DNA of 64,000 bases, taken from positions 23,315 to 87,314 of the forward strand of contig JAFURC010000046.1 in NCBI GenBank assembly GCA_017472015.1. The letters run 5' to 3'. Below are positions 28,465 through 45,864 of this stretch, piece after piece; within the stretch, counting starts at the first letter, position 1; each line of letters opens with the position of its first letter. The notes below the pieces were generated by a model, which searched no databases, was not told the DNA's origin, and was given only the letters and a program-made list of their open reading frames with translations. Made by a program: the position numbers and the translations under genes. This stretch comes from Bacilli bacterium. GTDB lineage: Bacteria; Bacillota_I; Bacilli_A; RF39; UBA660.

Positions 28465-28917
28465 ATGAACTATGGTTATCAAAATGAAGAAGATTTTGTT
28501 AATCTATTTAACAACAAATACTTATATGAATTAGATAATAATTCCCAAAAATTTTTAAAAGAATTATTTGAAGATGTAATAAATAATGAAGAAAAGATAA
28601 AATCTTGGAAAAATAAGGTCTCGCAAAAGACAGATATTTTTATCAAATATAAAAATCATATTAAAAATATCAGTTTAAAATGCGGACACAGTAATTCTAT
28701 GCATCACGAACAAATTCAAGATTTTAAAATTTATTTGGAAAAATTAAAAATTCCATATAATACTATTAATAAATATGTTAGTTATCATTATGGTTATATA
28801 CGAGATAATGAAGGAAATATAGACTTTTCTAAATCATTAAGTTCTGAAGAATATAAAAAACTTTATCAAGAAGAAATTGATGTTTTCAATAAAAGTATAA
28901 ACAAAAAAGAAATTTAG
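28465..28917 (+). CDS. Hypothetical protein (150 aa); faint resemblance to the N-terminal part of MspI/HinP1I-type restriction endonucleases
   Basis: The segment KTDIFIKYKNHIKNISLKCGHS recalls the D..(D/E)xK-like core of small type II REases (memory-based, weak). It is shorter than such enzymes and no methyltransferase is nearby. Confidence 0.35.
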   Translation: MNYGYQNEEDFVNLFNNKYLYELDNNSQKFLKELFEDVINNEEKIKSWKNKVSQKTDIFIKYKNHIKNISLKCGHSNSMHHEQIQDFKIYLEKLKIPYNTINKYVSYHYGYIRDNEGNIDFSKSLSSEEYKKLYQEEIDVFNKSINKKEI

Positions 28918-29063: not shown

Positions 29064-29100
29064 AAAAAAACTAGTACTTTATGTACTAGTATATTTTTTT
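29064..29100. terminator. Bidirectional rho-independent terminator
   Basis: A7 run, 8-bp stem actagtac (29070-77) / gtactagt (29083-90), then T7 run. Serves the minus-strand tRNA pair and any plus-strand readthrough. Confidence 0.7.
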
Positions 29101-29101
29101 A

Positions 29102-29176
29102 TGGAGCAGATAGCGGGAATCGAACCCGCGTCCTAGCCTTGGCAAGGCCATATTCGAGCCACTAAACCATATCTGC
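29102..29176 (-). tRNA. tRNA-Gly (anticodon GCC)
   Basis: The reverse complement GCAGATATGGTTTAGTGGCTCGAATATGGCCTTGCCAAGGCTAGGACGCGGGTTCGATTCCCGCTATCTGCTCCA folds as a cloverleaf. The acceptor GCAGATA/TATCTGC pairs, the anticodon loop is TTGCCAA and CCA is encoded. Confidence 0.9.
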
Positions 29177-29179
29177 ATT

Positions 29180-29253
29180 TGGAGGGGCCAGTCGGATTTG
29201 AACCAACGATCAAGGAGTTGCAGTCCACTGCCTTACCACTTGGCTATGACCCC
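29180..29253 (-). tRNA. tRNA-Cys (anticodon GCA)
   Basis: Reverse complement GGGGTCATAGCCAAGTGGTAAGGCAGTGGACTGCAACTCCTTGATCGTTGGTTCAAATCCGACTGGCCCCTCCA. The acceptor GGGGTCA/TGGCCCC pairs, the anticodon loop is CTGCAAC and the T-arm is GTTGG-TTCAAAT-CCGAC. Confidence 0.87.
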
Positions 29254-29294: not shown

Positions 29295-29419
29295 CAATAT
29301 TCTCACTTTTTACACTTTTTTACAATTTATTATATGATTAAAACTAAAAATAAATGCCATTTTCTTTATATAAAAGACTATTAAAAATTAATTATTAATC
29401 CCTAATAGTCCTTTTATTA

Positions 29420-30097
29420 TTAAATCAACTCTTCAATATTTTTTATTCTTGATAAAATACTATTATATTTACCTCTTATAGAGCCAGTTTCTTTAGAATG
29501 CTTTAAAAATGAATTCAAAGTATTTTCTATTTCTTTTAAATATCTTTTTTCATCTATAAAATAATCTAATAAAGGATATAACTCAATACCATAATTATAA
29601 AAAATACCCGTTTTAATTTCATCTAGTACAAAATTTAGTATTCGAAAACTTATATTTAAATCATCTATTAAAGAATATCCTAAAATATCTTCAATTACTT
29701 CAATACAATCACTAGCAACTTCTCCCGTTGAACCGTTTGAATCATCAATATCTGTTTCTGGTATTGAATCTAAAATGGTTTCTACTATATCAAAAGCTGA
29801 TTCATAATTTCTATTATCCAATAAATTTCTACTTTCGCGAATAAATCCATACATAAGTCTAGTATATTCACTTGCCTCACGGTAATCTATATAACCATCG
29901 CGTCCAGAAGCTAACTGAATAGCTGAATATATTTTTCTATTATATTCTTCCTTAGTAATTTTTGGAAAATAATTAATAAATGTGCCCCGAAAATCATTCA
30001 TAATATTTTCATTATAAGTAAGTATATCTAGTAAATAATTTTTAATATCATTATTATCAATTTTATCTAATATTTTTTTTAATTCTTTATTTTTCAT
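29420..30097 (-). CDS. Hypothetical protein (225 aa, acidic, probably all-helical), last gene of the Wadjet operon
   Basis: Start overlaps the upstream gene by 11 nt. I can recall no matching domain. Confidence 0.6.
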   Translation of the reverse strand: MKNKELKKILDKIDNNDIKNYLLDILTYNENIMNDFRGTFINYFPKITKEEYNRKIYSAIQLASGRDGYIDYREASEYTRLMYGFIRESRNLLDNRNYESAFDIVETILDSIPETDIDDSNGSTGEVASDCIEVIEDILGYSLIDDLNISFRILNFVLDEIKTGIFYNYGIELYPLLDYFIDEKRYLKEIENTLNSFLKHSKETGSIRGKYNSILSRIKNIEELI

Positions 30098-30644
30098 CCT
30101 TACATCCCTTTAGAAATTCCATTAAACCTTGAAAATTATCAATTATAAATTCTTGCATTTCTCTTTTATACAAAACGATATCGTATTCTCCAAAATTTCC
30201 AATTCGATGTTCTGTATACATTCCCATACTTTTTCCGGTTTCGGTTGGTAAATTTCGCTTACTTCCATTTATTAAAACTTCTTCTAATAAACCTATACTA
30301 ATTAACCAATCGCAAACATCAGTTGCTTTTAAATTTTTAACATCATCACTTTTTAAGACATTAATTCTTTGAACAATCTTAGAAATTGATAAATCTTCAC
30401 CAGTATAAGCAAACTTACCTAATAATTCTAAATCTAAAGTAAAAGGAAGTTTTTTAGTTTTTCTTGATCTTCCATTCTTTAACAAAACATCTGAAAGAAC
30501 CCCGTTGACATAAAATAAACACCTAGATATTCGAATATTATTGATTAAATCACTATCAGGAACCTTCTCCCCTGTTAAAGGATTTATTCCATTAGCCATT
30601 TTCTCTATATAATCTTTAGCATGTTTTAATATTTCTAAATCCAT
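30087..30644 (-). CDS. Hypothetical protein (185 aa), translationally coupled to jetD
   Basis: The ATG lies 1 nt after the jetD stop, with the SD aaggag inside the jetD 3' end. N-terminal motif ANGINPLTGEKVPDSDLINNIRISRCLFYV; no family assigned. Confidence 0.6.
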   Translation of the reverse strand: MDLEILKHAKDYIEKMANGINPLTGEKVPDSDLINNIRISRCLFYVNGVLSDVLLKNGRSRKTKKLPFTLDLELLGKFAYTGEDLSISKIVQRINVLKSDDVKNLKATDVCDWLISIGLLEEVLINGSKRNLPTETGKSMGMYTEHRIGNFGEYDIVLYKREMQEFIIDNFQGLMEFLKGCKDEK

Positions 30645-30645
30645 T

Positions 30646-31878
30646 TTATGCTCCTTTTCTATCTTTTTTCATATCACTTAATATTTTTAAATAATTTGCT
30701 TCTTGATATGATGATACTTTATTATTCTTTAATAAATCTTTAATAATAATTAAATCTTTATCATCTATTAAATCTAATTTTTTTAAACGGGAATTACTAA
30801 TTTCTTTATCAGATATTCCGTTCATATAGTAATCCTCATTATAACCAATAAATTCTAAATCGGGATATCTTTTTTTAAAATTATTAGCAATTAATAGTCC
30901 TTCTGGATCAAAATCACCATTAAAATATATTTTGGTATTTTTGATTTTATCCAGCAATTTATACACAACAAAATTCGAATTACCTGATGTAATAATTACT
31001 GAATAATCAAGTTCTAAATCAATTACTTTACTAAGGAAAGATGGATTTTCTAAAATTAATAATTTATTATTTTTAGTTTTTATGTTATCCATTTTCCTTA
31101 AATTAGCCATATTAATGGTTAAAGGTGTGAAATTTTTTTGAAAACTATCTAACATTTCATTTCCATATAAATTATAAGTTAAAACAATGTTTGATACTTC
31201 ATCAATTAAAATATTAACTCTTTCAAATATTTCTTTTTTTCTAATTCGTTTATTTTCATATTTAAAATTATACAAATAACTAATAAATTGTAATAAAACA
31301 TTGCTATTATGAGTATCTAAATCAAAATAATGGGGATCACCTGTTATATTGGAAGAAAAGATTGCTAAAGATTCAAAATTATCATAATTAATTGGTAAAT
31401 TACTTAAAGATTTTAAAACATTTTCTAATAATTTATCATCATGAAAAATTAAATATTCTATTTTCTTTTTAGATTCTTTATTTTCTAATAAAGTTTCTAA
31501 TATTTTATAATTATCTTTTAAATAAGTTAGTTTATCTTGTAAATAATTATTTTTTTCAAGAGTTAATTCTTGTTTAGTTTTTATATCAGGATAAAAAAGC
31601 AATACTAATTCATCAACTTCAACTCCTTCAAAGATACTATCGTCAAGAGCTGCTTGAATATCTGGTATTTTTATTTTTACACTTGTATTTACTTTAATAT
31701 TTTTGGATAAGAATAAAGATAATTTTAAAGCTTCATCAAGAGTTTTTGGTTTAATATTAATTGTTCCTTTACAAGTTCCATATTGAATATATTTATTTTT
31801 TAACTTTAAAAGAAATTCTTTAAATTCTTCTTTGTTAAAATAGTTTTTTAACTTAGTCTTCATAGTCTCTTGGATCAT
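30646..31878 (-). CDS. jetD: Wadjet JetD (MksG-like Toprim nuclease subunit)
   Basis: 410 aa, fourth gene after the SMC-like ATPase. C-terminal Toprim-like KIYFNGDFDPEGLLIA. Size and order match TIGR02679-type JetD. Confidence 0.82.
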   Translation of the reverse strand: MIQETMKTKLKNYFNKEEFKEFLLKLKNKYIQYGTCKGTINIKPKTLDEALKLSLFLSKNIKVNTSVKIKIPDIQAALDDSIFEGVEVDELVLLFYPDIKTKQELTLEKNNYLQDKLTYLKDNYKILETLLENKESKKKIEYLIFHDDKLLENVLKSLSNLPINYDNFESLAIFSSNITGDPHYFDLDTHNSNVLLQFISYLYNFKYENKRIRKKEIFERVNILIDEVSNIVLTYNLYGNEMLDSFQKNFTPLTINMANLRKMDNIKTKNNKLLILENPSFLSKVIDLELDYSVIITSGNSNFVVYKLLDKIKNTKIYFNGDFDPEGLLIANNFKKRYPDLEFIGYNEDYYMNGISDKEISNSRLKKLDLIDDKDLIIIKDLLKNNKVSSYQEANYLKILSDMKKDRKGA

Positions 31879-34800
31879 CTACTTTGCTCCTTTTAATTCC
31901 ATCCCATTTATATTTTAAAATAGATACTACTTTAGAACCAATTGGATGATGTAGTTCACTGATGGCTAGGTGTTTAACAGTATCATAATCTCCCCATAGT
32001 TGTTGACTAGTTAAAACATAATCAAGATCTAATTTACTTAAAATTCTAAATGCATCTTTTATGTTTTCATCATCAACACCAGCAAAGGCTTCATCTAAAG
32101 CAATAACATGAGGAGCCGTTTTATAAGCACTATTTAGTTTTGCATAAATACTTGAAAATAAAGGAATATACATAGCAATGGCTTTTTCTCCCCCACTCAT
32201 TTTATTGAATTCCCGATCGGTTAATTCTTTAGGAGGATTATTTCCTCTTTTAAAATACAATTTAAATTCAAACCACTTGCGATAATCCAAAACATCTTTC
32301 ATAATTTCTAAATAATTTCTTTCATTTTCTTCTAAAACTTCTTCTTTTCCCTTAATTTTACTTTTAAAATGATTAGTTATTTTAGTTAAATGTTCAGGTT
32401 TTAAATTACTAGCATCTTTTTTAAAGATATTAACAATTTCTCTTGTATCAAGTTCATCTTCATTTAAAGCGGTTATTCCATCCCATTTTAAAGAAAAACT
32501 AAGTCCACTTGAGGTGTTCATTGATTCCATATAATCTTTAACAACTTTAATCCATTCTTCACTTTGATAAATTTTATTTCTAATAGATGATCCAATATTA
32601 TTAATTAACAAATCTTCAAATAAACGTCGATTTTCTTCACTTATTAAATTTTCATAACTAGAAATAGAGTTATCAATAGCCTTCGATAAATCAAGTAAAT
32701 TAACATTTTTTCCTAAATAATTAAATACTAAATCTCGTCTTTTAGCATCACTTATCAATTCTTTTATTTCAACAATTTCTCGATTTAAATAATCTTTATA
32801 ATCACTATCATCATCATGTAAAGTAATATTTTTAGGAGCATAATTAATTAGTACTTGAGCATGTTTATTTAAAGCATCATTAAATTTTTCATAACTTTCA
32901 CGCATCGTATTATTAGATTTAATTTCTTTTAAGAAGTTAGTTATTTCATTTTCTTTTAAATCATCACTTAAAACATAATGAAGATTATATTCATCTTTAA
33001 ATATTTTATAAGTTAATTCTTTATAAATATCTTTTAATTCTAAATTATTCTTTAATTCTAAAATATTATTTTCTAAATATTCAACATTTGTTTTATTTCT
33101 CGTGATTAAATCTCTTTTATTTGGTATTTCATCCTTTAAAACTAATAATCTTTCACTTATCTTTTTATATTCAAGTCCAATATCTTTATATTTATCACTA
33201 TTAATAATATCATCAAGATTTTGTTGTTTATTTTTATAAGTTTCTAAAGAATAATCAATATCTTGAAGTTTTAATTTAATATTATCTAAATCACTATATA
33301 AATTACTAATATTTAATTTATAATAATTAACTAATTCAATAGTATTTTTATAAGACGATATAATATTTAAAATTTCTCCTACTAATTCTTTAGATTTATT
33401 TAAATTATCAATTACTTCTAAAATATCTTGGTAATCAAGAGATCCTAAATAATCTTGTTTTGATTCTTCTAGTTTAACTTCTAAATCTTTTAATTCATGA
33501 TTTAAATTTTGAATAATTATAATTTGATCATTTAAACTATTATTTAAATTATCAATATCAAAATTAATTTTATCTAATTCTTTAAATAAATTTAGAATAT
33601 TCCCTTGATAATTAAATGAATTATATTCAATATCCAAATTTTCAATATCTTTATTAAGATTTATATTTAACTGTTCTAAATTTTTAATTTCTTCTAAATA
33701 CTTATTTATACTAATTTCAATTTTTTCTTTTTCCTGATTAAGATATTCAAGTCTTGTACTCTCTCCTATATATCTTAATTCATGATTTGAATTAGTATTA
33801 CCAACAATAAGCGCAAATTCATATTTACCATTATCAAGTATTTTAATATTTGAATCACTTTCAAGGGAGATACTTTCTAATATTTTTTCTACTTTATCTT
33901 TATATTTAGTATCAGTTGGTTTTAAATATTTTAATAAATTATTTTTAACTTTGCAACTAGGTTTCAAACATCTTGTTTTAACAAGACTTTCTAAATCATC
34001 TTTTAAAGTAATAAATGAAGTTAAAATACCACTTTCAAATAAGAAAGATTCAATTTGTTTTCTTTTCTCTTTATTAGTATCTTCCTTAAATTCAATTAAT
34101 TCATAAAAGTAAGCATAATCAATATTTTCTTCTTTAAAGTAATTAATTGTATCCATATCATCTAAATGTTTTAAAAGTTTATTATCAATTTCTAATAGTT
34201 CTAATTTTAAATTCTTAATTTTTTCTTCATACTCTGAAATTTTAATTTTATTACTTGATATTCTTGATTTTATTTTATCTTTAAAGTTATAAACAACATT
34301 CATTAAAAATTCTTTTATTTTAACAAACATATCTCTTTCTAAATTATCAATTATTAAATAAAGGTTATCTAATTCATCTTGTTCAAGTTTTAATACTTTA
34401 TTTTCTAAAGAAGTTTTAGCAATTACATTTTTTAAATTATCACTTTCTTCGATTAAATGATTAGATATTTCAACATGTTTTTCTTTTAAGTCTTTTAATT
34501 TATCTTCATCTTCTGCATATTTATTTTTTAAATTTTCAATTTCTTTTTCTTTTAATAATTTTTGATAACTAAGATCTTTTAAATAAGTTAAAAGACTAAT
34601 TTGATTCTTTAAAGAACTTATAAAAGTTGGCATTTCTCTAAATTCAAACTTTTCTTCTTGAAGTTTTTCTAAATAATAATTATTATCTTTAAAACAAGAA
34701 AGTTGAATATCTTTTAAATAAGTAAGTAGTTCAGAAAAACTTTTCTCAATCTCAAATAAAGTATCTTCCTTATCTTTTAATTCTTTTTGATTTTTAAATA

Positions 34801-35887
34801 AATCACTTTCTTTTTTATCAAGTTCATAACTTTCTTTAGTTTTATCACTTTCTAATTTTTTTAACATATTAATAACATCATCTAATTCTTTAGTAATACT
34901 TTTTAAATCTGTTTGGTCCAAATTAGATTTTTTATGTTCTAAATCTTCTAATTCTAAATTTAAATCTTTTAAATTTAGAGTTTCTCTTCCGATTTCTTCA
35001 TTTAATTCTTTTAATTTTTCTTCTTTTTCTTTCAATTCTTTTATAATATCAGTTTGTTCTTTTTTATATTTTAAATAATTTTCGCCTTTTTGATATAAAA
35101 CTGCTTTATTATAGTCTAAAAAAGAATTTTTTAAAGAATTACAAGCCTTTTGTTCAATTTCTAAATCACTTAATTTTTCTTTATATTTATTCATGCCTTC
35201 AATTGAATCAGCCATAGTTCGCAAATCTTCTTCACTTAAAGGTTCTAAAACGGTTGATAAGATTTTGGTTAATTGGCTAGGTTTAGTGGAATTAGATAAT
35301 TTAGGAGATCTAACTTGAATTAATAAGTTAATAAATTCTGAATAAAGATCTATTGTTGGAAACCCAAATAATAATCTATTAACCATAGCTTTATAGTCTT
35401 TTGTAGTTTCAACAAACTCTCCACCAGAAGATATTCTTGCTTGAAGTTCTTTTTTAGTTAAAGGAATTCTTAAATTACTTTCTTTAAATAACAAGAAATC
35501 TTGTCCGATACGCCTGTTATCAGTTATAGCAAAACCCCAGAATTCACAATTTCGATTTCTAATTGCTCGAAGTCCCATACCAATGGTTAGGTATTTATTT
35601 TCTTCTTTATTATAAAACTCCATGTATAAATAACCCGTGTTTTCATTCCCTTGAAAGTCCTCAGGTAGTAAATAATCTTCAATTTTCCTATCACGAGATC
35701 CAAAAGGATCAAGTCTTTCCGGAGACTTATTACCATCAAATATTAAAGGAAAAAATGACTGCATAGTAACGGTTTTTCCCGATCCATTAGTTCCTCTTAA
35801 TAAAAGTTTCCCATCATAAAAATAAAAATCTTCTTCATCATATAACCAAAAATTAACAAATCCTATTCTATTTACTTGATACTTCAT
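31853..35887 (-). CDS. jetC: Wadjet JetC (MksB-like SMC-family ATPase)
   Basis: 1344 aa. N-terminal Walker A LRGTNGSGKT, about 800 aa of coiled coil, C-terminal signature MSGGEK and Walker B VIALDEAFAGVD. Confidence 0.9.
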   Translation of the reverse strand: MKYQVNRIGFVNFWLYDEEDFYFYDGKLLLRGTNGSGKTVTMQSFFPLIFDGNKSPERLDPFGSRDRKIEDYLLPEDFQGNENTGYLYMEFYNKEENKYLTIGMGLRAIRNRNCEFWGFAITDNRRIGQDFLLFKESNLRIPLTKKELQARISSGGEFVETTKDYKAMVNRLLFGFPTIDLYSEFINLLIQVRSPKLSNSTKPSQLTKILSTVLEPLSEEDLRTMADSIEGMNKYKEKLSDLEIEQKACNSLKNSFLDYNKAVLYQKGENYLKYKKEQTDIIKELKEKEEKLKELNEEIGRETLNLKDLNLELEDLEHKKSNLDQTDLKSITKELDDVINMLKKLESDKTKESYELDKKESDLFKNQKELKDKEDTLFEIEKSFSELLTYLKDIQLSCFKDNNYYLEKLQEEKFEFREMPTFISSLKNQISLLTYLKDLSYQKLLKEKEIENLKNKYAEDEDKLKDLKEKHVEISNHLIEESDNLKNVIAKTSLENKVLKLEQDELDNLYLIIDNLERDMFVKIKEFLMNVVYNFKDKIKSRISSNKIKISEYEEKIKNLKLELLEIDNKLLKHLDDMDTINYFKEENIDYAYFYELIEFKEDTNKEKRKQIESFLFESGILTSFITLKDDLESLVKTRCLKPSCKVKNNLLKYLKPTDTKYKDKVEKILESISLESDSNIKILDNGKYEFALIVGNTNSNHELRYIGESTRLEYLNQEKEKIEISINKYLEEIKNLEQLNINLNKDIENLDIEYNSFNYQGNILNLFKELDKINFDIDNLNNSLNDQIIIIQNLNHELKDLEVKLEESKQDYLGSLDYQDILEVIDNLNKSKELVGEILNIISSYKNTIELVNYYKLNISNLYSDLDNIKLKLQDIDYSLETYKNKQQNLDDIINSDKYKDIGLEYKKISERLLVLKDEIPNKRDLITRNKTNVEYLENNILELKNNLELKDIYKELTYKIFKDEYNLHYVLSDDLKENEITNFLKEIKSNNTMRESYEKFNDALNKHAQVLINYAPKNITLHDDDSDYKDYLNREIVEIKELISDAKRRDLVFNYLGKNVNLLDLSKAIDNSISSYENLISEENRRLFEDLLINNIGSSIRNKIYQSEEWIKVVKDYMESMNTSSGLSFSLKWDGITALNEDELDTREIVNIFKKDASNLKPEHLTKITNHFKSKIKGKEEVLEENERNYLEIMKDVLDYRKWFEFKLYFKRGNNPPKELTDREFNKMSGGEKAIAMYIPLFSSIYAKLNSAYKTAPHVIALDEAFAGVDDENIKDAFRILSKLDLDYVLTSQQLWGDYDTVKHLAISELHHPIGSKVVSILKYKWDGIKRSKVDDPRDYED

Positions 35888-37032
35888 AAATCCTCCCCAA
35901 TACTTAATTGTTCATACATAGAATCTTCTTTTTCTTCTTCTTTTTCATAATTACCACTTATTAAATAAACAATATCGGATACTTGATAATTATCCCCCGT
36001 AATTTTCAATAAACCAAAACTTTCCATACAAGAAGTGACTTCTAAAAAGAACTTATCTTCTTTCATTTCCCGAAATTCTTTATTAAAATACTTAGAATTT
36101 TCTTGTTGAACTTTCCTAACTAGTTTTTTAAATTCTAATTTATCTAAATCTAATCTATCAAGTTCATTTACTATATAATCACTTACCAATAAAACTATAT
36201 CATGACTCATTTTTCTAGTATTTGGAAAATTTATTCTATTTGGTTTTTCAACAGTTGTAAGGATTGCCAAATTATTAAAAATTAATAAATCTCCATCTAA
36301 AAGTTCTTTTATATCACTAGTAATTCTTCCTCGGTAATTTAGAAAATAATTATAAATTTCTGCGTCAAATAAAGAATAATTAAAAATTGGATAAAATAAT
36401 AAAGTTCTATAAGTATAATATCTTTTTTTATTTAATAATTCCTCAGTATCTAAAGTATTTAAAAAATCACTTGCCTCTTTATAAGAAAAAATATCTTCTT
36501 TAAATTGTCTAACTAAATAATGGGATATTCCTGTATTTTCATACAAGACTTCATTCTCAACTGATTCTTTAAATAATAAATCATTTCCATCTATTTGCTT
36601 AATAACTCCTAATTTAACTAAATATTTTAAAACTTTAACTAAACTTTTTCTGGTTGTATAATCTTTAAAATCAATTACTACTTTTTTAACTTCAATAGTT
36701 GCTATTAAATTCAAAATAAAAGTTGTTAGATTTGATAAAATAAATTGTTCATCACGTGCTTTATCTTCTAAAAACATAATTATTAAAATAAAGAATATAT
36801 AATCTTTTTGATCATTAAAATCCGATATACTAAAAGTATTATCAATTATCGATGGTATTTTTTCTAATTTAATTAAAGAAGAATTAACAATCACATCACA
36901 ACCTAATTTACTAGTTGCAAATTCCCGAATTTTTTTAATCTTTGATTTTATTTTATAATATGCCTCTTTATTATTTTCTTTAGTTATTAAAAAGTTATTT
37001 AACAACAGTTCTAATTCCTCTTTAAATTCCAT
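35884..37032 (-). CDS. jetB: Wadjet JetB (MksE-like)
   Basis: 382 aa. Sits between the JetA-like and JetC genes with 4-nt and 11-nt overlaps; size fits JetB (TIGR02678-type). Confidence 0.78.
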   Translation of the reverse strand: MEFKEELELLLNNFLITKENNKEAYYKIKSKIKKIREFATSKLGCDVIVNSSLIKLEKIPSIIDNTFSISDFNDQKDYIFFILIIMFLEDKARDEQFILSNLTTFILNLIATIEVKKVVIDFKDYTTRKSLVKVLKYLVKLGVIKQIDGNDLLFKESVENEVLYENTGISHYLVRQFKEDIFSYKEASDFLNTLDTEELLNKKRYYTYRTLLFYPIFNYSLFDAEIYNYFLNYRGRITSDIKELLDGDLLIFNNLAILTTVEKPNRINFPNTRKMSHDIVLLVSDYIVNELDRLDLDKLEFKKLVRKVQQENSKYFNKEFREMKEDKFFLEVTSCMESFGLLKITGDNYQVSDIVYLISGNYEKEEEKEDSMYEQLSIGEDL

Positions 37033-38491
37033 TTTTATCCCCCATAAATGTAATTTTAAAATTCTTCATAGTTAATATACCATCAAGAGATACTAAGTGA
37101 ATATCATCGTCATCAATACTTTCGACTTTATAAGATACCCCGTATTCATTATTTTTAACTATATCTTTGTTAATACCTTTAGTTATTAAAGATAAGATAA
37201 ATCTTCTTTCAAATTTTTCGATATTATTTAAATCTCGAATAACAATTTCACCTTTTTTAATATATTCTTTTAATAATTTCTCTTCTCGTTCTTTTTCTTC
37301 TAAAATTTTCTTTAATTGTTCTTCTTTTTCAAAATATTTATAATCAACTTGATTCTTAACTGATTTTTCTCTTACTAAACGACTATGACTTTTTAAAGTA
37401 ATAAAAGTTGAAATAACATCTTTAGGACTGGTATTTATAGAATCAGTTGTCTTTTCAACACTAGAAATATGTTTTACTTTTTCAATTCCAAATGTAGCAG
37501 TTGCTAACTTTGCACAATCTTCTAAAGAATCGCTTTGAAAAAATAAATTTAAAATATGTTTATATTCTTCCATTCTATTAATACTAGTATTAGTTTCAAT
37601 TATGGAAATAACATACTTAGTTATTTTATTAATAATATTATTAACCGCTTTTTTTAATCTTTCAGATTCACTTTCCGTGAAGTTATCACATAAAAACCAT
37701 TTAACAATACTTTGCCATTTTCCCCTTAATACTTCTTCTAAATATAAAAAATCAAAATCAGGTTCTATTATAGGTTGATTTTTCTTATGTTCCATAACCT
37801 TAGCAATCATTTTATCTTCAAAATCACTTGGTAAATTATTTAATATATTTTGAATTTTAATTTCATTTATTTGAAAACCTGTAATAAAATTTTTTAAATA
37901 CTCAATTACTTTATCTTTATAAATCAAAAAACTTTCACTTTTCATTAATTCTTCACTTTTAGCTTCATGAAACATCTTTAAAAAGTCTTTATAATTATTA
38001 TTTAACTTCGTAAAAGTTTCATTCAACTCTTCAAAATGGGCACTTATATCTTCTTTGTTTTCTAAATTATTAAACTCACTAAGAAGAACTCTTAATTTAT
38101 CAAATAACTTAGGTTCTAAAGATGATGTTTCAACTTTTAAAGTCTCAAGATGCATCACCATTCTCTCAATTTCAATTGCATATTCTGTTAATTGATAACG
38201 AAATTTTCTATTTTTAAATTCTTCAACCGTTTTAACATTAGTCGTATCTTGGATATTGGTTAAATTCCCCCATTCAACAAGTCTTAATAAATCTTGTTCA
38301 CAAAGATCAATTGTATAAGAATCAAAATTATCTTTTAAATTACTATAAACATCTTCTTTATATAACCAATATTCAAGTTTTTCATACTGTTTAAAAAAAT
38401 ACCTAATAATCGGACGATAACGCTCTGTGTTTTCAACACTTAAATACTTTACTTCATCTATTCTTTTTGTTAAATCACTATTTACTACCAT
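37022..38491 (-). CDS. jetA: Wadjet JetA (MksF-like kleisin)
   Basis: About 489 aa, first gene of the operon. N-terminus YLSVENTERYRPIIRYFF fits the JetA/DUF2397-type start. The track begins at TTG 38503; ATG 38491 is preceded by the SD ggtga. Confidence 0.78.
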   Translation of the reverse strand: MVVNSDLTKRIDEVKYLSVENTERYRPIIRYFFKQYEKLEYWLYKEDVYSNLKDNFDSYTIDLCEQDLLRLVEWGNLTNIQDTTNVKTVEEFKNRKFRYQLTEYAIEIERMVMHLETLKVETSSLEPKLFDKLRVLLSEFNNLENKEDISAHFEELNETFTKLNNNYKDFLKMFHEAKSEELMKSESFLIYKDKVIEYLKNFITGFQINEIKIQNILNNLPSDFEDKMIAKVMEHKKNQPIIEPDFDFLYLEEVLRGKWQSIVKWFLCDNFTESESERLKKAVNNIINKITKYVISIIETNTSINRMEEYKHILNLFFQSDSLEDCAKLATATFGIEKVKHISSVEKTTDSINTSPKDVISTFITLKSHSRLVREKSVKNQVDYKYFEKEEQLKKILEEKEREEKLLKEYIKKGEIVIRDLNNIEKFERRFILSLITKGINKDIVKNNEYGVSYKVESIDDDDIHLVSLDGILTMKNFKITFMGDKNGI

Positions 38492-38511
38492 ATACTTCAC
38501 CAATCAGCAGT

Positions 38512-38681: not shown

Positions 38682-39392
38682 ATGATAGAATATAATTGTT
38701 ATATAGATGAATCTGGTGATGAAGGAATAAGAAAGGGATCAAAATACTTTATATTAACAGCAATCATTTTAAAAAAAGAAGATGATTTAAAAATATCCAA
38801 TGCAGTTGATAGAATTAAAGAAAATTTAGAAATGGATAAAAAAGCACAATTACACTGGAAATTACTCAAAGGTCTTCCTAACAAAAACATGATTATGAAT
38901 ATAATTAACACTTTAGATATAAAAATAATAAATGTCATCGTGGATACTAAAAGCATCCAGTTTATTCCATCTAATAATATTTATAATTATTTTAGTGGTT
39001 ATTTATACGAACGAATATGTCGGTATATGTCTGAAGTAAATGGAATTGTAAATATAAATATTAGTTCACGAGGTAATTTATCTAAAGAAAAATTGAATAC
39101 ATATCTAAATAACAACAATCATAAAAAATTTAATATAAATTCAGATGCAATAAAAAATATCAAAATAATTCCAAACGAAAGAAAAAAATTACTCCAATTA
39201 GCCGATTGCTGTTGTAGTGCTTTATTTCAAGCGCTAAAATATAACGATAAAACCCATTTTGAATATATCAAAAAAATTAAAAGCAAAATATATGTAGTAA
39301 ACAACAATATTTTAAGTTATGGTTTAAAAATAGTTCCTAGTAATAGTAATACAAAGGAACTAATTGAATTAATAAATTATTTAAACAATTAA
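38682..39392 (+). CDS. DUF3800 domain protein
   Basis: N-terminal CYIDESGDEG and C-terminal LLQLADCCCSALFQA match the conserved ends of DUF3800 as I recall them. 236 aa. Confidence 0.72.
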   Translation: MIEYNCYIDESGDEGIRKGSKYFILTAIILKKEDDLKISNAVDRIKENLEMDKKAQLHWKLLKGLPNKNMIMNIINTLDIKIINVIVDTKSIQFIPSNNIYNYFSGYLYERICRYMSEVNGIVNINISSRGNLSKEKLNTYLNNNNHKKFNINSDAIKNIKIIPNERKKLLQLADCCCSALFQALKYNDKTHFEYIKKIKSKIYVVNNNILSYGLKIVPSNSNTKELIELINYLNN

Positions 39393-39395
39393 AAA

Positions 39396-39490
39396 AGTGA
39401 GCTTTCCCCTGCCTGAAGGAACCCACAAGGCAAGCTTGCTGGTACATATTAAATGCACCCTTCAGCAATTCAGCGAACTACTCACTCACT
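39396..39490 (+). ncRNA. GC-rich structured element immediately 3' of the DUF3800 gene (candidate DUF3800-associated RNA motif; strand uncertain)
   Basis: About 50% GC in a roughly 22% GC background. Nested inverted repeats: agtgag (39396-401) / ctcact (39481-86), ctgaagg (39413-19) / ccttcag (39459-65), and the central palindrome gcaagcttgc (39430-39). Confidence 0.3.
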
Positions 39491-39949: not shown

Positions 39950-40412
39950 TTATTCACAAAAAGTTAAATATATATATTTATCTAAAACCCTATTATTAAA
40001 TGCTTCATAAGGAAGTAAATTACCTCTAGCATTTCTCCATGGACTTTTTAAATGAGTAAATTCTTCTAAAGTGTCAGCATCATATTTAGAATAAATATCC
40101 ATAGTTTTTTTCAAGAACATAAATAACTTTATCACTTAAAAGACTATAATCATTTTCTTCAAGTGAAATAAGACTAATTCCATAATTTTTAAATATTTGA
40201 TAAACATAAGGATCAACTGGACCATGAGCCCATGCTTCAAAATGATTTAGAAATAAAACATCATTTATTTTTGAATCACTTTTATTATATTCAGCTAAAT
40301 AAATCCCATAACTAAAATATAACATCTTTTGTAATTTTTTATGTGTCATAGCCTGATGATACAAAAACCAATTAACAATAAGCTTAATATCACTAACAGC
40401 AACATTTTTCAT
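39950..40412 (-). pseudogene. Panacea (DUF4065/SocA-like) antitoxin-domain gene split by a +1 frameshift in an A7 run
   Basis: Track ORFs 40086-40412 and 39950-40135 are consecutive halves. The first reads ..HKKLQKMLYFSYGIYL..FEAWAHGPVDPYVY.. and ends ..VLEKNYGYLF*. Removing one A from gaaaaaaac (complement of the T7 at 40105-40111) gives ..VLEKTMDIYSKYDADTLEEFTHLKSPW.., a typical DUF4065 C-terminus. Confidence 0.6.
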
Positions 40413-40433: not shown

Positions 40434-40808
40434 TTATACATTCTGTTGTTGTTCTTCTAAATACTTCTCGTATGATTCCATAAACCTCATATAATCATCT
40501 ACATCAACATTTCCTATTTTAAATAAAATATTTGCTTTTTTAAAAACATATAATTTATCACATTTTATTATACTATCTTTACTTAAAGAATTTTTTGAAT
40601 TATGTTTTATTACCTCATTATATTTAAATTTAGATTTCTCTATATGTGATGATACAATTAACCCAAAATATTCAATTGGAATAACTCTTTCATCATCACC
40701 TACAACAACAAATAAATGATTAACTCCCTTCTCTTCATTATCATATTCAAATTCATTAACAAAAACAATATCACCAATATCATACTTTCCTTGTCTTTTT
40801 TTCATCAT
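40434..40808 (-). CDS. MazF/PemK-fold toxin-like protein
   Basis: IGDIVFVNEF..GVNHLFVVVGDD..GLIVSSHIEK..LSKDSIIKCDKLYVFKKANILFKIGNV follows the MazF/PemK layout. SD gggagg lies upstream. 124 aa. Confidence 0.6.
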   Translation of the reverse strand: MMKKRQGKYDIGDIVFVNEFEYDNEEKGVNHLFVVVGDDERVIPIEYFGLIVSSHIEKSKFKYNEVIKHNSKNSLSKDSIIKCDKLYVFKKANILFKIGNVDVDDYMRFMESYEKYLEEQQQNV

Positions 40809-41061: not shown

Positions 41062-42069
41062 TTAAATTAAATTTAAACATTTAATTATTCTATTAATTAT
41101 AACTTTTTTTAAATTATAACATTTAGTATATTCTAAATAACTTAAATAACTATTCATACTAAAATAAAATTTTAATAAATCATCATTTATATTAAAATTA
41201 TTAATTATTTTAAATATCTTTTTTATATTTCTTTTTCTAGGAATTAATTTATCAGAATAAACTATATAACCACAAAAATCTATTCCATGATTATATTTAA
41301 AATATCTTGTTTTTTTATTTAAATTTAATTTTAAATTATTATTTAAAATTTTTCTTATTTCATCTAAAACTAACTTACATTCTTCTTTAGAATCAAGTAA
41401 AAAAATAAAATCGTCCATATATCTAATATAATACTTTACCCCTAAATTGTCTTTAATAAACCAATCTAGTTCATTAAGATAAATATTTGCAAAGTATTGA
41501 CTAGTATAATTTCCGATAGGTAAACCATTATTTATATTATCAAATAAGATTTTTTTAGTTAATTCAAGCAAATATTTATCTTTAATATCTCTTTTTAAAA
41601 TATTAAATAAAATATTTTTATCTATATTAAAAAAATATTTTTCTATATCACATTTTAAAACATAAAAATCTTTATTACTATTTTCTTTTAAATATAATTG
41701 TAATTTATTTACACATTTATGAGTACCTCTTCCTTTTATACAAGCATATGAATCTTTTATAAATCTTTTAACATAAAATGTTTTAATAAACTCTTCTATA
41801 TACCACTGATGAATTATTCTATCTTTAAAAGGAAGTGACATTATTAATCTTTCTTTTGGTTCATGAATTATAAACTCTTTATATTTACCGGGTTTATAAG
41901 TTAAATATCTAAGAGCATTATATATTTTAATTAAATTAGTTTCTAAATTAAGTTCAAAATCTATAACTTCTTTTTTATTTCTTTTATTTTTTCTAGCTCT
42001 TAAATAGGCATTATATAATTTATCTATATCTAATTTATCAAAGTAACATCTCTTTAATGTTTTAGACAT
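41062..42069 (-). CDS. DGR reverse transcriptase
   Basis: 335 aa. LPIGNYTSQYFANIYL (the [I/L]GxxxSQ motif characteristic of DGR RTs) and YIRYMDDFIF (YxDD). Adjacent to Avd and the TR. Confidence 0.9.
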   Translation of the reverse strand: MSKTLKRCYFDKLDIDKLYNAYLRARKNKRNKKEVIDFELNLETNLIKIYNALRYLTYKPGKYKEFIIHEPKERLIMSLPFKDRIIHQWYIEEFIKTFYVKRFIKDSYACIKGRGTHKCVNKLQLYLKENSNKDFYVLKCDIEKYFFNIDKNILFNILKRDIKDKYLLELTKKILFDNINNGLPIGNYTSQYFANIYLNELDWFIKDNLGVKYYIRYMDDFIFLLDSKEECKLVLDEIRKILNNNLKLNLNKKTRYFKYNHGIDFCGYIVYSDKLIPRKRNIKKIFKIINNFNINDDLLKFYFSMNSYLSYLEYTKCYNLKKVIINRIIKCLNLI

Positions 42070-42401
42070 AATTTAATATATTCTCCTATTATATTATTAA
42101 TATTATTTAATTTATTACTCCATACATAATAATTTCTTTTATTAATATATTTATTTTTATAAGAAAGTCTTATTAAAAAACATAACATTTTAATATTTAC
42201 ATCTAATAAATTAAGATTATTAATTTTAGATTCATTATTATAACTTTTAAATATTAAAATAATTAATTTCATACCTTCATAAGTATTATTTTTAATATCT
42301 AAAACTAAAGATGTTTTTTCATCTTGTGGATATTTTTTTAATATATTATGAGTATAATATATTAAATCATCATATAAATTATATAATTTATATTTATCCA
42401 T
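42054..42401 (-). CDS. avd: DGR accessory variability determinant (Avd, four-helix-bundle protein)
   Basis: About 115 aa from ATG 42401 (MDKYKLYNLYDDLIYYTHNILKKYPQDEK..). Overlaps the RT start by 16 nt. Size, position and helical pattern fit Avd. The track start at 42470 adds an implausible hydrophobic extension. Confidence 0.72.
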   Translation of the reverse strand: MDKYKLYNLYDDLIYYTHNILKKYPQDEKTSLVLDIKNNTYEGMKLIILIFKSYNNESKINNLNLLDVNIKMLCFLIRLSYKNKYINKRNYYVWSNKLNNINNIIGEYIKLCLKH

Positions 42402-42590
42402 AAAAAAACATAAATACAATAATATATTTATGAGAACTTGTTCCATTTTCAAAAATACTTGGGTACTCACAGAACTTTCTTTTAGTTATTTTTTCCATCA
42501 AGGAAGGTGTAAAGCTGTACAGAAAAAATTCGATTTTTAATATTTCATCATGGTCCTATATAGGCATCACTAGAAATAACGTTTATTTGT

Positions 42591-42734
42591 ACTCACGCGA
42601 GACCAGCAACGCCGGGCGGCCGCTGTTGTTGTTGTTCGCATCACCATTGTTGTTGTTCGAGTTCGTGATACCCCAATTGTCAGAATTGTTACTATTGCCG
42701 CCCCGTTTGAACCACGGATTGCTGGAATTCGGCA
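42591..42734 (-). repeat. DGR template repeat (TR)
   Basis: 144 bp, 116/144 identical to 43134-43277 without gaps. The coding-strand sequence is rich in AAC/AAT codons (AAC AAC AAC AAT ... AAC AAC AAC AAC AGC). Confidence 0.88.
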
Positions 42735-43035
42735 AAGTGACTATAAAACAACAGCCAAACGCTAACGCTTTTTACCTATCTTAATTAATATAAAATTATA
42801 TAGTTATTAATAAACCTCAAATATTATTTAATTAAGACAAAAACATAGTATCATAAATATATATATATTGTAAATCCTTTCTAAAATATTTTTAAGTTTA
42901 AAAATAAACTTTATAGAATTAATTAAAGTGATAACTAATTCTATAAAATTTCCAAGTCTTAGTCTCAAACGACTAAGACTTGGTATTAGTTTTATGATGA
43001 TAATACCATTTACGATATAATAAATTTTTATTGAG

Positions 43036-43072
43036 TCGACTCCAGTCCCATTGCAGAGGGGGACTGGGTCGA
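43036..43072 (-). other. GC-rich hairpin/cruciform downstream of the VR
   Basis: 13-bp stem tcgac(t)ccagtccc / gggactgggtcga with one bulge and a 10-nt loop. Lies 42 nt past the target stop codon. No T-run follows on the minus strand. Confidence 0.5.
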
Positions 43073-43113
43073 TTACAGGTACCAACTTACGATCTTATCT
43101 TACTTTCTTGGCT

Positions 43114-45864
43114 TTATTCACTTAACCAAGGAAACTCACGCGAGACCACCACAGCCGGGCGGCCACTGTCGCGGTTGAACGCAGCACCATTACGGCTGCT
43201 CGAGTTCGTGATACCCCAAGAGTCAGAATTATCCGCATCGCCGCCCCGAACGAACCACGGAGTGCTGGAAGTCGGCATATAACGATAAACTTCCCCCCAA
43301 CCGCCAGTTGAAGAACCAAATGTTGTTGTTGCTTCTCTTGTTGCATCACCTAATTTTCCTCTTGATTGACTATTTATACTATAATCACTTGAACTATAAG
43401 AATATTTATCATAGTATTTATCATTTGGAATATTTCCAGTAGTTGATGTTGACCAGGTACCGGCAGATGATGGATAAAAGTTACCAGAACTACCAACCAT
43501 ATTTCCCATCACTCTTTCATAAGCCCCACCATTCATATCATATACACCATATATATTTCCAGTTGTTGAAGCGCCAGCCCCTCGGTAACCTCTTCCTTCG
43601 GTTGCTATTGTCATATCGTTGTATAAGAAAGTACTACTTGTACTAGTTGTTCCGGTTCCATTATATGTTCCACTAGAGTAACCTGTTTTATAAATATAAT
43701 TAGATGATGATGTATAGTAATTATTTTTATAAACTCTTCGATAGTCTCCTGTGTATAAAGGATTAGACCATTTACCATACTGTGAATAAGATAAATAAGT
43801 AACTGCTCCCCATTCCATGTTTTTTAACATGTGTGTATCAATATTATTGCTATCATTTTGAATTTCACCCGATAGATAAGAATTACTATCTAAATGAGAT
43901 GTAGCATTTTCACTTTGAGTGAATCCATGAATATTATTATATGTTTCCATACCTCTTATATTGGCAAATATATTTGAGACAGATATATATCTTAAACTTT
44001 GTTCATTTGGTTTTATTAAAATATTTAAACCTGTTTTATTACAATTAGTTGTACTTTGACTTGATAAACATGTTGCATCGTCTGTTGATATTTCAAATTT
44101 AGCCATCCAGAAACCGGTTAATTCTTCATCTCCAAAAGTGAAAGCAGGATGGGTGTAAGTACTTTTTCCATTTATAATTGACCCATATGTAGAGTCTGTA
44201 CAAGTTTCGCTTGATGAAGAATCAGATGCGGTTTGAATATTATCAACACAGGTAACTGTACCAGTTTTATCGATTCCATGTTCAAATTCTATTTCAATTA
44301 ATTGTTCTTGACTACCTTCGTTATTTCCACTCCATATTGTATATTTATATCTTGGAATCCATACCCACATGGTAGTTATATCTTCCATTTTAACTTCTTG
44401 ACCTAATTGGCCACCTAAACTACCTACTACACTTCCTTGGTGAATATCAACACTTGTTACGATTCCATTTACATAACTTTTTATTTCATATAATTTAACG
44501 CATGATGTTTTAGTATCTGAGTTACAAGTAAAATATCCAATATTACTTGATGTATAAGCTGTTAAAACTGCATCATCTGATAAAGTAAATATACCTGTTG
44601 TTTCATCATAAGTATATGAAGTGGATGCTAATTGTTTTTTCTCAGAAGTTACAGTAGTAACATCTGCAGTAGTTGAAGTCCATGGATAAGTTGATGCTTC
44701 TGTATGAGTTAACTCACTTGATAAAGTTGATGTTATATTTATATTAGAAATTGTTGCTATATCATTACCACTCGCAGAACTACCATCTTTAACATAAGAT
44801 GCTGTCAAAGTATAGGTAGTATTTGCATTTAAAGAAAATTCCTTACTTCCTGTTATAGAACCACTCTCCGCACTAACTAATGTTGTGTCTGTTGAACCAT
44901 TATTAATTTTAATCGTTAGTTTATCCCAGCCAGATTCACTACTAACAGTATAATCGAAAGTTAAAGTTCCTGCACTTGAAGTTGTAAAATTAAATGTTGC
45001 TGTTGAAGTTGAACTATTTACCCCCTTATTACCACTAGTATAAGTTGTAATAGTCTTAGTCTCAGTTATTTCTTCATTAGTCTCTATCGTAACTGGAATA
45101 TCTTCTTTAACTGTTTCAGGGCCTGAAAAACCTTTATATTCATCCATTACATCTTTATTAACTGTTACAGCATTTGCCCACATAAAGTCTTCATAATCAA
45201 ACCATTTATATGTTTCATTTAAATTCTTTCTATCAGCAACTCTCCATACTCCTTCTGTATCACTTACTTTGTCATAGTAAATTGGAATCATATTATCAGT
45301 TAACTCAGGAAAATTTGCTCCACTTTGATCTAAATTTGATATTTGCATTCCTTCAACAAGAACTACTTTAGAAAAACTTAAATTATTTGGATTAACATTA
45401 TAATCAATCCACATAACAAGTTCATAAGTGAATGTTTCCCCTACTTCAATATTTCCTTCATCTATTAAACCTTCATTATCTAAGTTTTTAATATCTAAAG
45501 TTGTTGTTTCATTTGTTAAATCACTAGTTCTTTTAAGTTGATATCTAACATCAGTATTTTTCATAGTACTAATTATACCTTCTTTATCAACTAAACTAAC
45601 TTTATAACTTGCTATCATTGTTCCAGTATTTTTTACTTGAAAAGTAGTTTTATTATTAGTTAATCCTTCACTATCTAACATTGGATAAGTATTAGGTATT
45701 TCAATACTTGTCATATCTGTTAGTAAAATAACCCCAAAATTAGATAAAGTTAGCCCCGTATTATTGTTACTAACTTTCTCTGCTTTTAAATAGGAGTAAC
45801 TGGTTCCTACTACTCCTAATATAACTATTAAAGATATCATTAAAACAAAAACTTTTTTCTTCAT
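43114..45864 (-). CDS. DGR target protein: secreted 916-aa protein with a C-terminal FGE/C-type-lectin-like variable domain
   Basis: N-terminus MKKKVFVLMISLIVILGVVGTSYSYLKA (TasA/SipW-type signal-like). Thr/Ser-rich middle. GFWMAKFEIS and GVYDMNGGAYERV resemble FGE-sulfatase/CLec folds. The VR covers the last ~55 codons. Confidence 0.85.
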   Translation of the reverse strand: MKKKVFVLMISLIVILGVVGTSYSYLKAEKVSNNNTGLTLSNFGVILLTDMTSIEIPNTYPMLDSEGLTNNKTTFQVKNTGTMIASYKVSLVDKEGIISTMKNTDVRYQLKRTSDLTNETTTLDIKNLDNEGLIDEGNIEVGETFTYELVMWIDYNVNPNNLSFSKVVLVEGMQISNLDQSGANFPELTDNMIPIYYDKVSDTEGVWRVADRKNLNETYKWFDYEDFMWANAVTVNKDVMDEYKGFSGPETVKEDIPVTIETNEEITETKTITTYTSGNKGVNSSTSTATFNFTTSSAGTLTFDYTVSSESGWDKLTIKINNGSTDTTLVSAESGSITGSKEFSLNANTTYTLTASYVKDGSSASGNDIATISNINITSTLSSELTHTEASTYPWTSTTADVTTVTSEKKQLASTSYTYDETTGIFTLSDDAVLTAYTSSNIGYFTCNSDTKTSCVKLYEIKSYVNGIVTSVDIHQGSVVGSLGGQLGQEVKMEDITTMWVWIPRYKYTIWSGNNEGSQEQLIEIEFEHGIDKTGTVTCVDNIQTASDSSSSETCTDSTYGSIINGKSTYTHPAFTFGDEELTGFWMAKFEISTDDATCLSSQSTTNCNKTGLNILIKPNEQSLRYISVSNIFANIRGMETYNNIHGFTQSENATSHLDSNSYLSGEIQNDSNNIDTHMLKNMEWGAVTYLSYSQYGKWSNPLYTGDYRRVYKNNYYTSSSNYIYKTGYSSGTYNGTGTTSTSSTFLYNDMTIATEGRGYRGAGASTTGNIYGVYDMNGGAYERVMGNMVGSSGNFYPSSAGTWSTSTTGNIPNDKYYDKYSYSSSDYSINSQSRGKLGDATREATTTFGSSTGGWGEVYRYMPTSSTPWFVRGGDADNSDSWGITNSSSRNGAAFNRDSGRPAVVVSREFPWLSE
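43134..43277 (-). repeat. DGR variable repeat (VR) inside the 3' end of the target gene
   Basis: Encodes ..PTSSTPWFVRGGDADNSDSWGITNSSSRNGAAFNRDSGRPAVVVSRE... It differs from the TR at 28 positions, 20 of them at TR coding-strand adenines. Confidence 0.88.

Follow-up and report, generated by a model that had tools for sequence, protein, structure and literature searches.

The 64,000-nucleotide window considered here, a stretch of contig JAFURC010000046.1 (assembly GCA_017472015.1) of a Bacilli bacterium, carries a complete type II Wadjet anti-plasmid system (jetABCD), which is followed on the same strand by two additional genes that we refer to as p185 and p225 according to the lengths of the encoded proteins (185 and 225 amino acids). 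We consider it somewhat more likely than not that the two genes are unrelated to each other, that each is maintained in its own right and that both were captured by the operon at its 3' end, one of them encoding a free-standing, winged-helix-like DNA-binding protein and the other a scaffold of the SWIM zinc-finger protein family that lacks the finger. The capture would have occurred in one lineage of low-GC gut Bacillota, and because the relatives of p185 and p225 almost always sit elsewhere, the pair is best read as a lineage-specific add-on and not as a general new part of Wadjet.

Wadjet was reportedly described by Doron et al. in 2018 as a four-gene system, and PADLOC, Pfam and NCBIfam agree that the four jet genes of the window form a complete representative of type II (Table 1). 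The TAA stop codon of jetD (30648-30646) is separated by a single nucleotide from the ATG of p185 (30644-30642), the Shine-Dalgarno sequence of p185 is embedded in jetD, and the p185 and p225 open reading frames (ORFs) overlap by 11 nt (30087-30097). A hairpin resembling an intrinsic terminator begins 5 nt past the p225 stop codon and is predicted to be very stable (-17.5 kcal/mol; z = -5.69; none of 200 shuffled sequences was as stable); the genes for tRNA-Cys and tRNA-Gly that come next form the downstream boundary and lie outside the operon. A first-pass annotation, made from the DNA sequence alone, had already reported both ORFs, which lie on the minus strand, and had read the junctions in the same manner. 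The six-gene unit jetABCD-p185-p225 that it proposed, ending before the tRNA genes, is borne out by the sequence anatomy, in which the added genes are translationally coupled and a single terminator follows. Its additional claim that there is no room for a separate promoter is true of the intergenic space but not of the coding sequence, in which internal promoters could occur, since promoter-like hexamers are as frequent there (80 found) as expected from shuffled sequence of 24% GC (79.9). As p185 and p225 have the same orientation as jetABCD, are linked to it by translational coupling and end at a single common terminator, they are most likely expressed from the jetA promoter. The GC content at third codon positions is uniform (0.10-0.16) over the six operon genes and the housekeeping neighbours mutS, lon and folD; hence, there is no sign of a recent import of p185 and p225, and a recent horizontal insertion of the two genes was dismissed on these compositional grounds.

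Both ORFs are genuine genes, each of them under purifying selection. A word-indexed search returned 261 homologue clusters for p185 and 7 for p225, and an exhaustive profile search yielded 1417 relatives of the latter. The start codons of both genes coincide with the starts of their homologues, and the ratios of nonsynonymous to synonymous substitution rates (dN/dS), calculated against the orthologues found on a second contig (L088; see below), are 0.24 for p185 and 0.45 for p225.

The p225 protein is the stand-alone helical middle module of a family of SWIM zinc-finger proteins of about 550 amino acids, from which both the finger and the C-terminal half are missing. As the first-pass annotation had anticipated, it is acidic (isoelectric point 4.66) and predicted to be all-helical, and its AlphaFold2 (AF2) model (mean predicted local distance difference test score, pLDDT, 90.7) consists of 11 helices arranged as a compact alpha-solenoid; the accompanying statement that p225 cannot be assigned to a family has to be given up. 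Most of the 1417 proteins that are retrieved with a profile built from 7 p225 homologues have a length of 540-575 amino acids, and full-length SWIM proteins reach E-values down to 1e-147. A CxC..CxH SWIM motif is present within the first 140 amino acids in all 99 full-length relatives examined, and the Pfam SWIM domain is found in each of nine full-length representatives, one of which shows weak similarity to DUF6880. In the hidden Markov model (HMM) of the family, which comprises 554 positions, p225 aligns to positions 99-308 (E 2e-51). It thus starts past the CxCxnCxH zinc finger, the sequence upstream of it being the intact p185 gene, and it ends at about position 308, directly ahead of the terminator, so that HMM positions 309-554 have no counterpart. 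Read-through translation of another locus (L093) reveals a SWIM finger, a p225-like region and a C-terminal extension in one frame with a single in-frame stop. The assignment of p225 as a middle module follows from its alignment to the profile, from the finger of the full-length relatives and from this single-frame arrangement.

The ~550-amino-acid bacterial SWIM proteins, which combine a Pfam SWIM domain (PF04434) at the N-terminus with a long helical region, share with p225 the homologous helical region and its invariant DIDDSNGSTGE and NYGIELY motifs; p225 differs from them as an acidic protein of 225 amino acids that stands alone, without the finger and the C-terminal segment, and without an SNF2 gene nearby in the window. 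Short forms of this type recur in at least 8 clusters of 220-241 amino acids, which start at HMM positions 98-101 and end at positions 304-338. A close short-form relative of p225 (L091/92) follows a gene for an SNF2_assoc-SNF2 helicase in an organism that reads TGA as Trp, another one (L089) is located after HATPase_c_4 fragments and near a longer paralogue, and a third (L104) follows an unrelated gene. Association with SNF2 is reportedly the classic neighbourhood of SWIM domains, as outlined by Makarova, Aravind and Koonin in 2002. The window protein itself has no usable match in Pfam, PADLOC, NCBIfam or PHROGs and none among PDB sequence profiles, and a Foldseek comparison of its model with the PDB gave nothing at an E-value of 0.001 or better, the hits being generic designed, HEAT or ARM repeats. 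When the p225 alignment was compared with viral contigs, no relatives were found; in metagenomes it found three loci, none of them with Wadjet.

In metagenome contigs, full-length SWIM genes are frequently broken into two to four pieces or carry an in-frame stop, and this occurs at similar positions (Table 1). Because the organism of L091/92 reads TGA as Trp, some of these interruptions might be due to an alternative genetic code, and the others could reflect decay or assembly error. The frequency of such disruptions is what makes it conceivable that p225 is the non-functional leftover of a fragmented SWIM gene, with p185 as an inert passenger and the tight junctions as mere coincidence. We regard this explanation as very doubtful: the short form is reproducible in its boundaries across the clusters mentioned above, no N- or C-terminal SWIM-family fragment is found beside p225 either in the window or in L088, and the two ORFs are intact, with dN/dS values below 1, a confidently predicted compact fold and a terminator after p225.

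For the p185 protein, the earlier statement that it cannot be assigned to a family still stands with regard to curated families, as the window protein has no match in Pfam, PADLOC (5027 models), NCBIfam or PHROGs. Its AF2 model (pLDDT 89) starts with two long helices (residues 3-17 and 37-55) that form an N-terminal helical hairpin (residues 3-55) and are joined by the invariant loop ANGINPLTGE...NN.RISRCLFY; this hairpin is followed by a basic linker, a winged-helix-like domain (residues ~67-160) with two beta-hairpins, and two C-terminal helices. An alignment of homologues bears out the emphasis that the first-pass annotation had put on the N-terminal motif, which is the most conserved part of the family (invariant residues A9, Y12, A17, G19, P22, N35, R41, C42, L43, F44 and L50). 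One p185 subfamily possesses an extra C-terminal extension that resembles a helix-turn-helix.

The relatives that can be suggested for p185 are small winged-helix proteins. Against PDB sequence profiles, the only match is a weak one to F-93 of SSV1 (E 0.021), and the N-terminal hairpin alone finds no PDB match by sequence (E above 0.6). Foldseek searches of the PDB with the p185 model gave no match at an E-value of 0.001 or better and weak ones (E 0.06-0.3) to Sso10a, F-93, PadR and MarR. Weak Pfam matches within the p185 family point to F-93_WHD (3 of 45 members; best 1.7e-4), DUF4364 (3 of 45) and DUF6262 (6 of 45). The topology of the AF2 model would be compatible with a winged helix-turn-helix fold that has a recognition helix and a beta-wing. 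To SSV1 F-93, Sso10a, PadR/MarR and DUF4364 proteins, p185 can be likened through the H-H-H-wing topology predicted for residues ~67-160 and through a 'PTExG' turn; it differs from these proteins through its unique conserved N-terminal hairpin and a second beta-hairpin, and no curated threshold is reached. The best structural matches in BFVD are phage 'repressor domain' and antirepressor/KilAC proteins (E 1.5e-3 to 1.4e-2; Foldseek probability ~1.0; 143-183 aligned columns), but the template modelling (TM) scores are only about 0.35 (0.36 at E 1.5e-3), neither Pfam ANT, Bro-N or KilA-N nor a PHROG profile matches p185, and its family is nearly absent from phages. Like the winged helix-turn-helix regulators BrxR and CapW, p185 is a small predicted DNA-binding protein in a defence operon; unlike them, it has no WYL or WCX domain according to Pfam (WYL inspected at E up to 1), it is the fifth of six genes at the 3' end of the operon and not located upstream, and its family members are usually monocistronic, with some loci beside housekeeping genes. 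Rok-type silencers, which consist of an oligomerisation domain, a linker and a winged helix, look similar as well; as neither the sequence nor the fold comparisons with the PDB returned Rok, the resemblance is an analogy. A relationship of p185 to the KITE or kleisin subunits as a winged-helix paralogue was rejected, since hhalign assigned probabilities of 0.5% against JetB and 0.2% against JetA.

The p185 family is scattered and mostly monocistronic. There are 302 confirmed matches in 185,579 GTDB species-representative genomes, and the hosts belong for the most part to uncultured gut Bacilli ('Tenericutes'/RF39-like, Onthousia) and Clostridia (Ruminococcus, Oscillospiraceae). Phages seldom carry a member of the family (two phage records and three IMG/VR contigs), and no match was obtained in 72,556 plasmids; with no plasmid and only about five viral contigs, the notion that p185 serves plasmids or phages as an anti-defence gene was discarded. 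The best 80 of the 302 genome matches were inspected for their contexts, and the survey as a whole covered 98 loci with flanks of up to 10 kb on each side; a simple ORF caller was used, and the immediate neighbours of p185 were annotated. In 39 of the 68 distinct contexts the gene has no co-directional neighbour within 60 nt on either side. Even the closest homologues (62-66% identity) follow a metallophosphatase gene (L094) or a DUF4143/AAA_14 ATPase gene (L095/96), lie beside adenosine deaminase and LOG genes (L097), or stand alone (L105-107). The operonic neighbours include enzymes of nucleic-acid metabolism (a PLD-ResIII-DUF3427, DpdF-like helicase; AAA_14-DUF4143, PDC-S01; an AAA-ATPase with PDDEXK_9; NTP_transf_5; UvrD-type helicases; AAA_11/12 with DUF2726; Fic-HTH) as well as housekeeping proteins (GH2, GH3, MFS transporters, Lgt, PheA and a NUDIX protein). 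Some p185 genes reside in what are obviously defence islands, in the company of Cmr, GmrSD and TIR genes or of MmeI and AlbA_2 genes, and in one clade of RF39-like genomes p185 occupies a syntenic chromosomal position.

Given this distribution, neither p185 nor p225 is a general accessory of Wadjet. JetA-D proteins were not detectable by tblastn in any of the 98 p185 loci, only L088 showing a short jetD tail; a p225 homologue was found by tblastn in L088 alone, and a SWIM-family protein in none of the 87 p185 loci searched for it. Hence, 97 of the 98 loci have neither jet genes nor a p225 homologue, and the remaining short forms of the p225 type are located after an SNF2 helicase gene or after unrelated genes. 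A recurrence of homologues next to jetD, for which the first-pass annotation had proposed to look, was seen in L088, in which the jetD-p185-p225 order is found again, and in none of the 97 other p185 loci.

L088 is a contig of 1346 bp with the tail of an upstream ORF, a p185 orthologue whose ATG overlaps the stop codon of that ORF, and a p225 orthologue that starts 7 nt further on; each orthologue is 64% identical to the corresponding window protein. The tail of the upstream ORF (NYTKILLDM) agrees with that of JetD from the window (NYLKILSDM) in 7 of 9 positions, the only match of at least 6 of 9 among 127,948 six-frame window positions, and the ORF is therefore very probably jetD. Positions 1-16 of L088 correspond to the Nextera transposase mosaic-end (TGTGTATAAGAGACAG), and its left end is therefore untrimmed adapter and not biological sequence. 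A second type II Wadjet system is present at positions 6652-10746 of L090 (JetA, JetB and JetC are 43, 37 and 45% identical to their window counterparts), and is preceded on that strand by a DUF6088-AbiEii pair, a PRiA4_ORF3 gene and a disrupted SWIM gene. Wadjet is close by in just two of the 10 p225-family loci, L088 and L090, and a reverse survey that started from JetD found no relatives in metagenome and viral collections.

Several of these observations count against a simple capture of two unrelated genes. The order jetD-p185-p225 and its tight junctions are kept in L088 at 64% protein identity. The trio has thus stayed together in one lineage while its sequences diverged substantially, which is compatible with a selected functional link and is the best argument for one. 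A disrupted full-length SWIM gene lies about 5 kb upstream of the type II Wadjet of L090. The case for DNA binding by p185 is built from weak fold and sequence matches (E 0.02-0.3), and the context survey has bounds of its own: it drew on the best-matching genomes, many of the contexts are short contigs, and the tblastn queries were type II Jet proteins, which type I or III systems could escape.

In view of such findings, p185 and p225 might be a lineage-specific accessory pair that modulates this type II Wadjet, for example with p185 binding DNA and p225 bridging to JetABCD, so that target choice would be tuned or self-cleavage restrained. We judge this to be unlikely. It would account for the translational coupling to jetD, for the lack of a terminator before p225, for the retention of the three-gene order and of the tight junctions in L088 despite a protein divergence of about 36%, and for the SWIM-family gene near another type II Wadjet in L090. 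It would also be in keeping with the positions of some p185 relatives directly after a DpdF-like PLD helicase gene (L038, L061 and probably L098, where the neighbour is deduced from its size and position), after a DUF4143 ATPase gene (L045, L051, L095/96) and after AAA+PDDEXK_9 genes (L079, L085), which fit a plug-in DNA-binding adaptor. However, Wadjet is involved in only one of the 98 p185 loci (plus the window) and in two to three of about ten p225-family loci, most p185 genes are monocistronic, and the hhalign similarity to JetA and JetB is below 1% probability. Type II Wadjet (JetABCD/MksBEFG/EptABCD), an anti-plasmid system based on a structural maintenance of chromosomes (SMC) complex, is likewise described as a four-gene system in a structural preprint (10.1101/2025.03.10.642339), and our literature search on Wadjet accessory genes found none reported; searches on SWIM and SNF2 proteins in defence and on YwqB returned nothing relevant. 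The two extra genes resemble an integral part of that system in being on the same strand, coupled and served by a common terminator; they differ in that neither is homologous to a Jet subunit, by PADLOC and, for p185, by hhalign, and in that they accompany Wadjet only in this lineage.

A bolder proposal starts from the observed partners of p185, i.e., JetD, DpdF-like PLD helicases, DUF4143 ATPases, AAA+PDDEXK_9 and UvrD-like helicases. The p185 family could be an unrecognised DNA-binding plug-in at the 3' end of varied genes for DNA-targeting NTPases and nucleases, which in this operon, together with the SWIM-less scaffold, alters the target choice or target sparing of type II Wadjet and thereby creates a six-component variant; we view this as a decidedly long shot. 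Another suggestion of the first-pass annotation, a self-contained two-gene defence system that borrows the promoter of the operon, seems highly improbable to us. It finds some backing in the 11-nt overlap, in the adjacency of the two genes in L088 as well and in an island that also harbours a DUF3800 gene, a MazF/SocA pair and a diversity-generating retroelement (DGR), but the two families occur together in only one of the 98 p185 loci and one of the 10 p225-family loci; neither protein has an enzymatic or effector domain, and neither matches any of the 5027 PADLOC models. This idea fails because the p185 and p225 families co-occur only in this lineage, and for the related idea of an anti-anti-defence pair nothing was found in support.

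We therefore return to the capture of two unrelated genes as the reading that we prefer. According to it, p185 would be an autonomous DNA-binding protein whose winged-helix-like domain, as modelled, contacts DNA, and whose invariant N-terminal hairpin may serve in self-association or in docking to a partner; this layout would resemble, by analogy, that of small two-domain regulators or nucleoid-associated proteins. The p225 protein may function as a protein-protein scaffold. In the full-length relatives this module is tethered to the SWIM finger, and their genes appear often to be located near those of enzymes that act on nucleic acids, SNF2-type ones among them; the short form would have dispensed with the zinc finger but retained the surface that binds partners. 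Both proteins would be dispensable for the canonical loop extrusion and cleavage by JetABCD.

Table 1. Positions of the six-gene unit and its boundary features in the window, and of disrupted SWIM-family genes in metagenome loci.
Feature	Position	Strand	Evidence
jetA, type II Wadjet kleisin (DUF2397), first gene of the operon	37022..38503	-	PADLOC JetA2 4e-152; Pfam DUF2397 1.4e-103
jetB, KITE subunit (DUF2398)	35884..37032	-	PADLOC JetB2 7.2e-93; Pfam DUF2398 3.7e-69
jetC, SMC ATPase	31853..35887	-	PADLOC JetC2 E=0 (1139.7 bits); NCBIfam TIGR02680 8e-192; Pfam SbcC_Walker_B
jetD, Toprim nuclease subunit	30646..31878	-	PADLOC JetD2 4.3e-82; Pfam DUF3323 1.3e-23, DUF2399 3.4e-13, JetD_C 5e-5
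Shine-Dalgarno sequence AGGAG of p185, within the jetD coding sequence, 6 nt before the ATG	30651..30655	-	direct sequence reading
p185 (185 aa), uncharacterised two-domain protein	30087..30644	-	homologues and AF2 model
p225 (225 aa), acidic all-helical repeat protein, SWIM-family middle module	29420..30097	-	profile alignment and AF2 model
Intrinsic-terminator-like hairpin, 20-bp stem followed by UUUUAUAU, closing the six-gene unit	29372..29414	-	RNA fold
tRNA-Cys	29180-29253	-	ARAGORN; Rfam tRNA ~60.6 bits
tRNA-Gly	29102-29176	-	ARAGORN; Rfam tRNA ~60.6 bits
Disrupted SWIM gene, four pieces	L090 1-1522		
Disrupted SWIM gene, two pieces	L101 5469-7132		
Disrupted SWIM gene, in-frame stop	L093 1321-2961		
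Disrupted SWIM gene, second copy interrupted	L089 11433-12849		

Upstream of jetA and divergent from it, a DUF3800 gene (38682-39392, plus strand) is abutted at its 3' end by an Rfam DUF3800-VII RNA motif (39391-39486, minus strand; 66.8 bits, gathering score 36.2). Also on the minus strand are a gene for a MazF/PemK-like toxin (40434-40808) and, following this, a gene resembling SocA/Panacea-domain antitoxins (40086-40412). The DGR (41062-45864, minus strand) comprises a reverse transcriptase gene (41062-42069), bAvd (42054-42470), a template repeat (42591-42734) and a variable repeat (43134-43277) at the 3' end of a gene for a protein of 916 amino acids without a Pfam match; over 144 nt the two repeats share 81% identity, with 20 of the 28 mismatches located at template adenines. 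As the toxin pair lies between the DUF3800 gene and the DGR, the Wadjet operon sits in a small island of defence and mobile elements that extends from the tRNA genes to folD. On the other side of the operon, an ORF of 150 amino acids without a Pfam match (28465-28917, plus strand) occupies part of the interval from lon to the tRNA genes, and a bidirectional terminator-like hairpin (29070-29090) comes after it. Farther away, a marginal match to Rfam n00280, 'C. difficile sRNA included into helicase gene' (7193-7289, minus strand; 66.4 bits, gathering score 65.2), lies inside an ORF of 716 amino acids (6834-8984).

Should p185 and p225 modulate Wadjet, this SMC-based anti-plasmid system would gain its first described accessory factors, and such a modulation could bear on the question of how the system avoids cutting the chromosome. 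More probably, the case illustrates that a gene may be closely coupled in translation to a defence operon without this being, by itself, evidence of membership in the system. The more likely outcome of this work is also the definition of an unannotated protein family, present in about 300 species, that is winged-helix-like and possesses a distinctive invariant N-terminal motif, together with that of a recurrent SWIM-less short form of a family of SWIM proteins.

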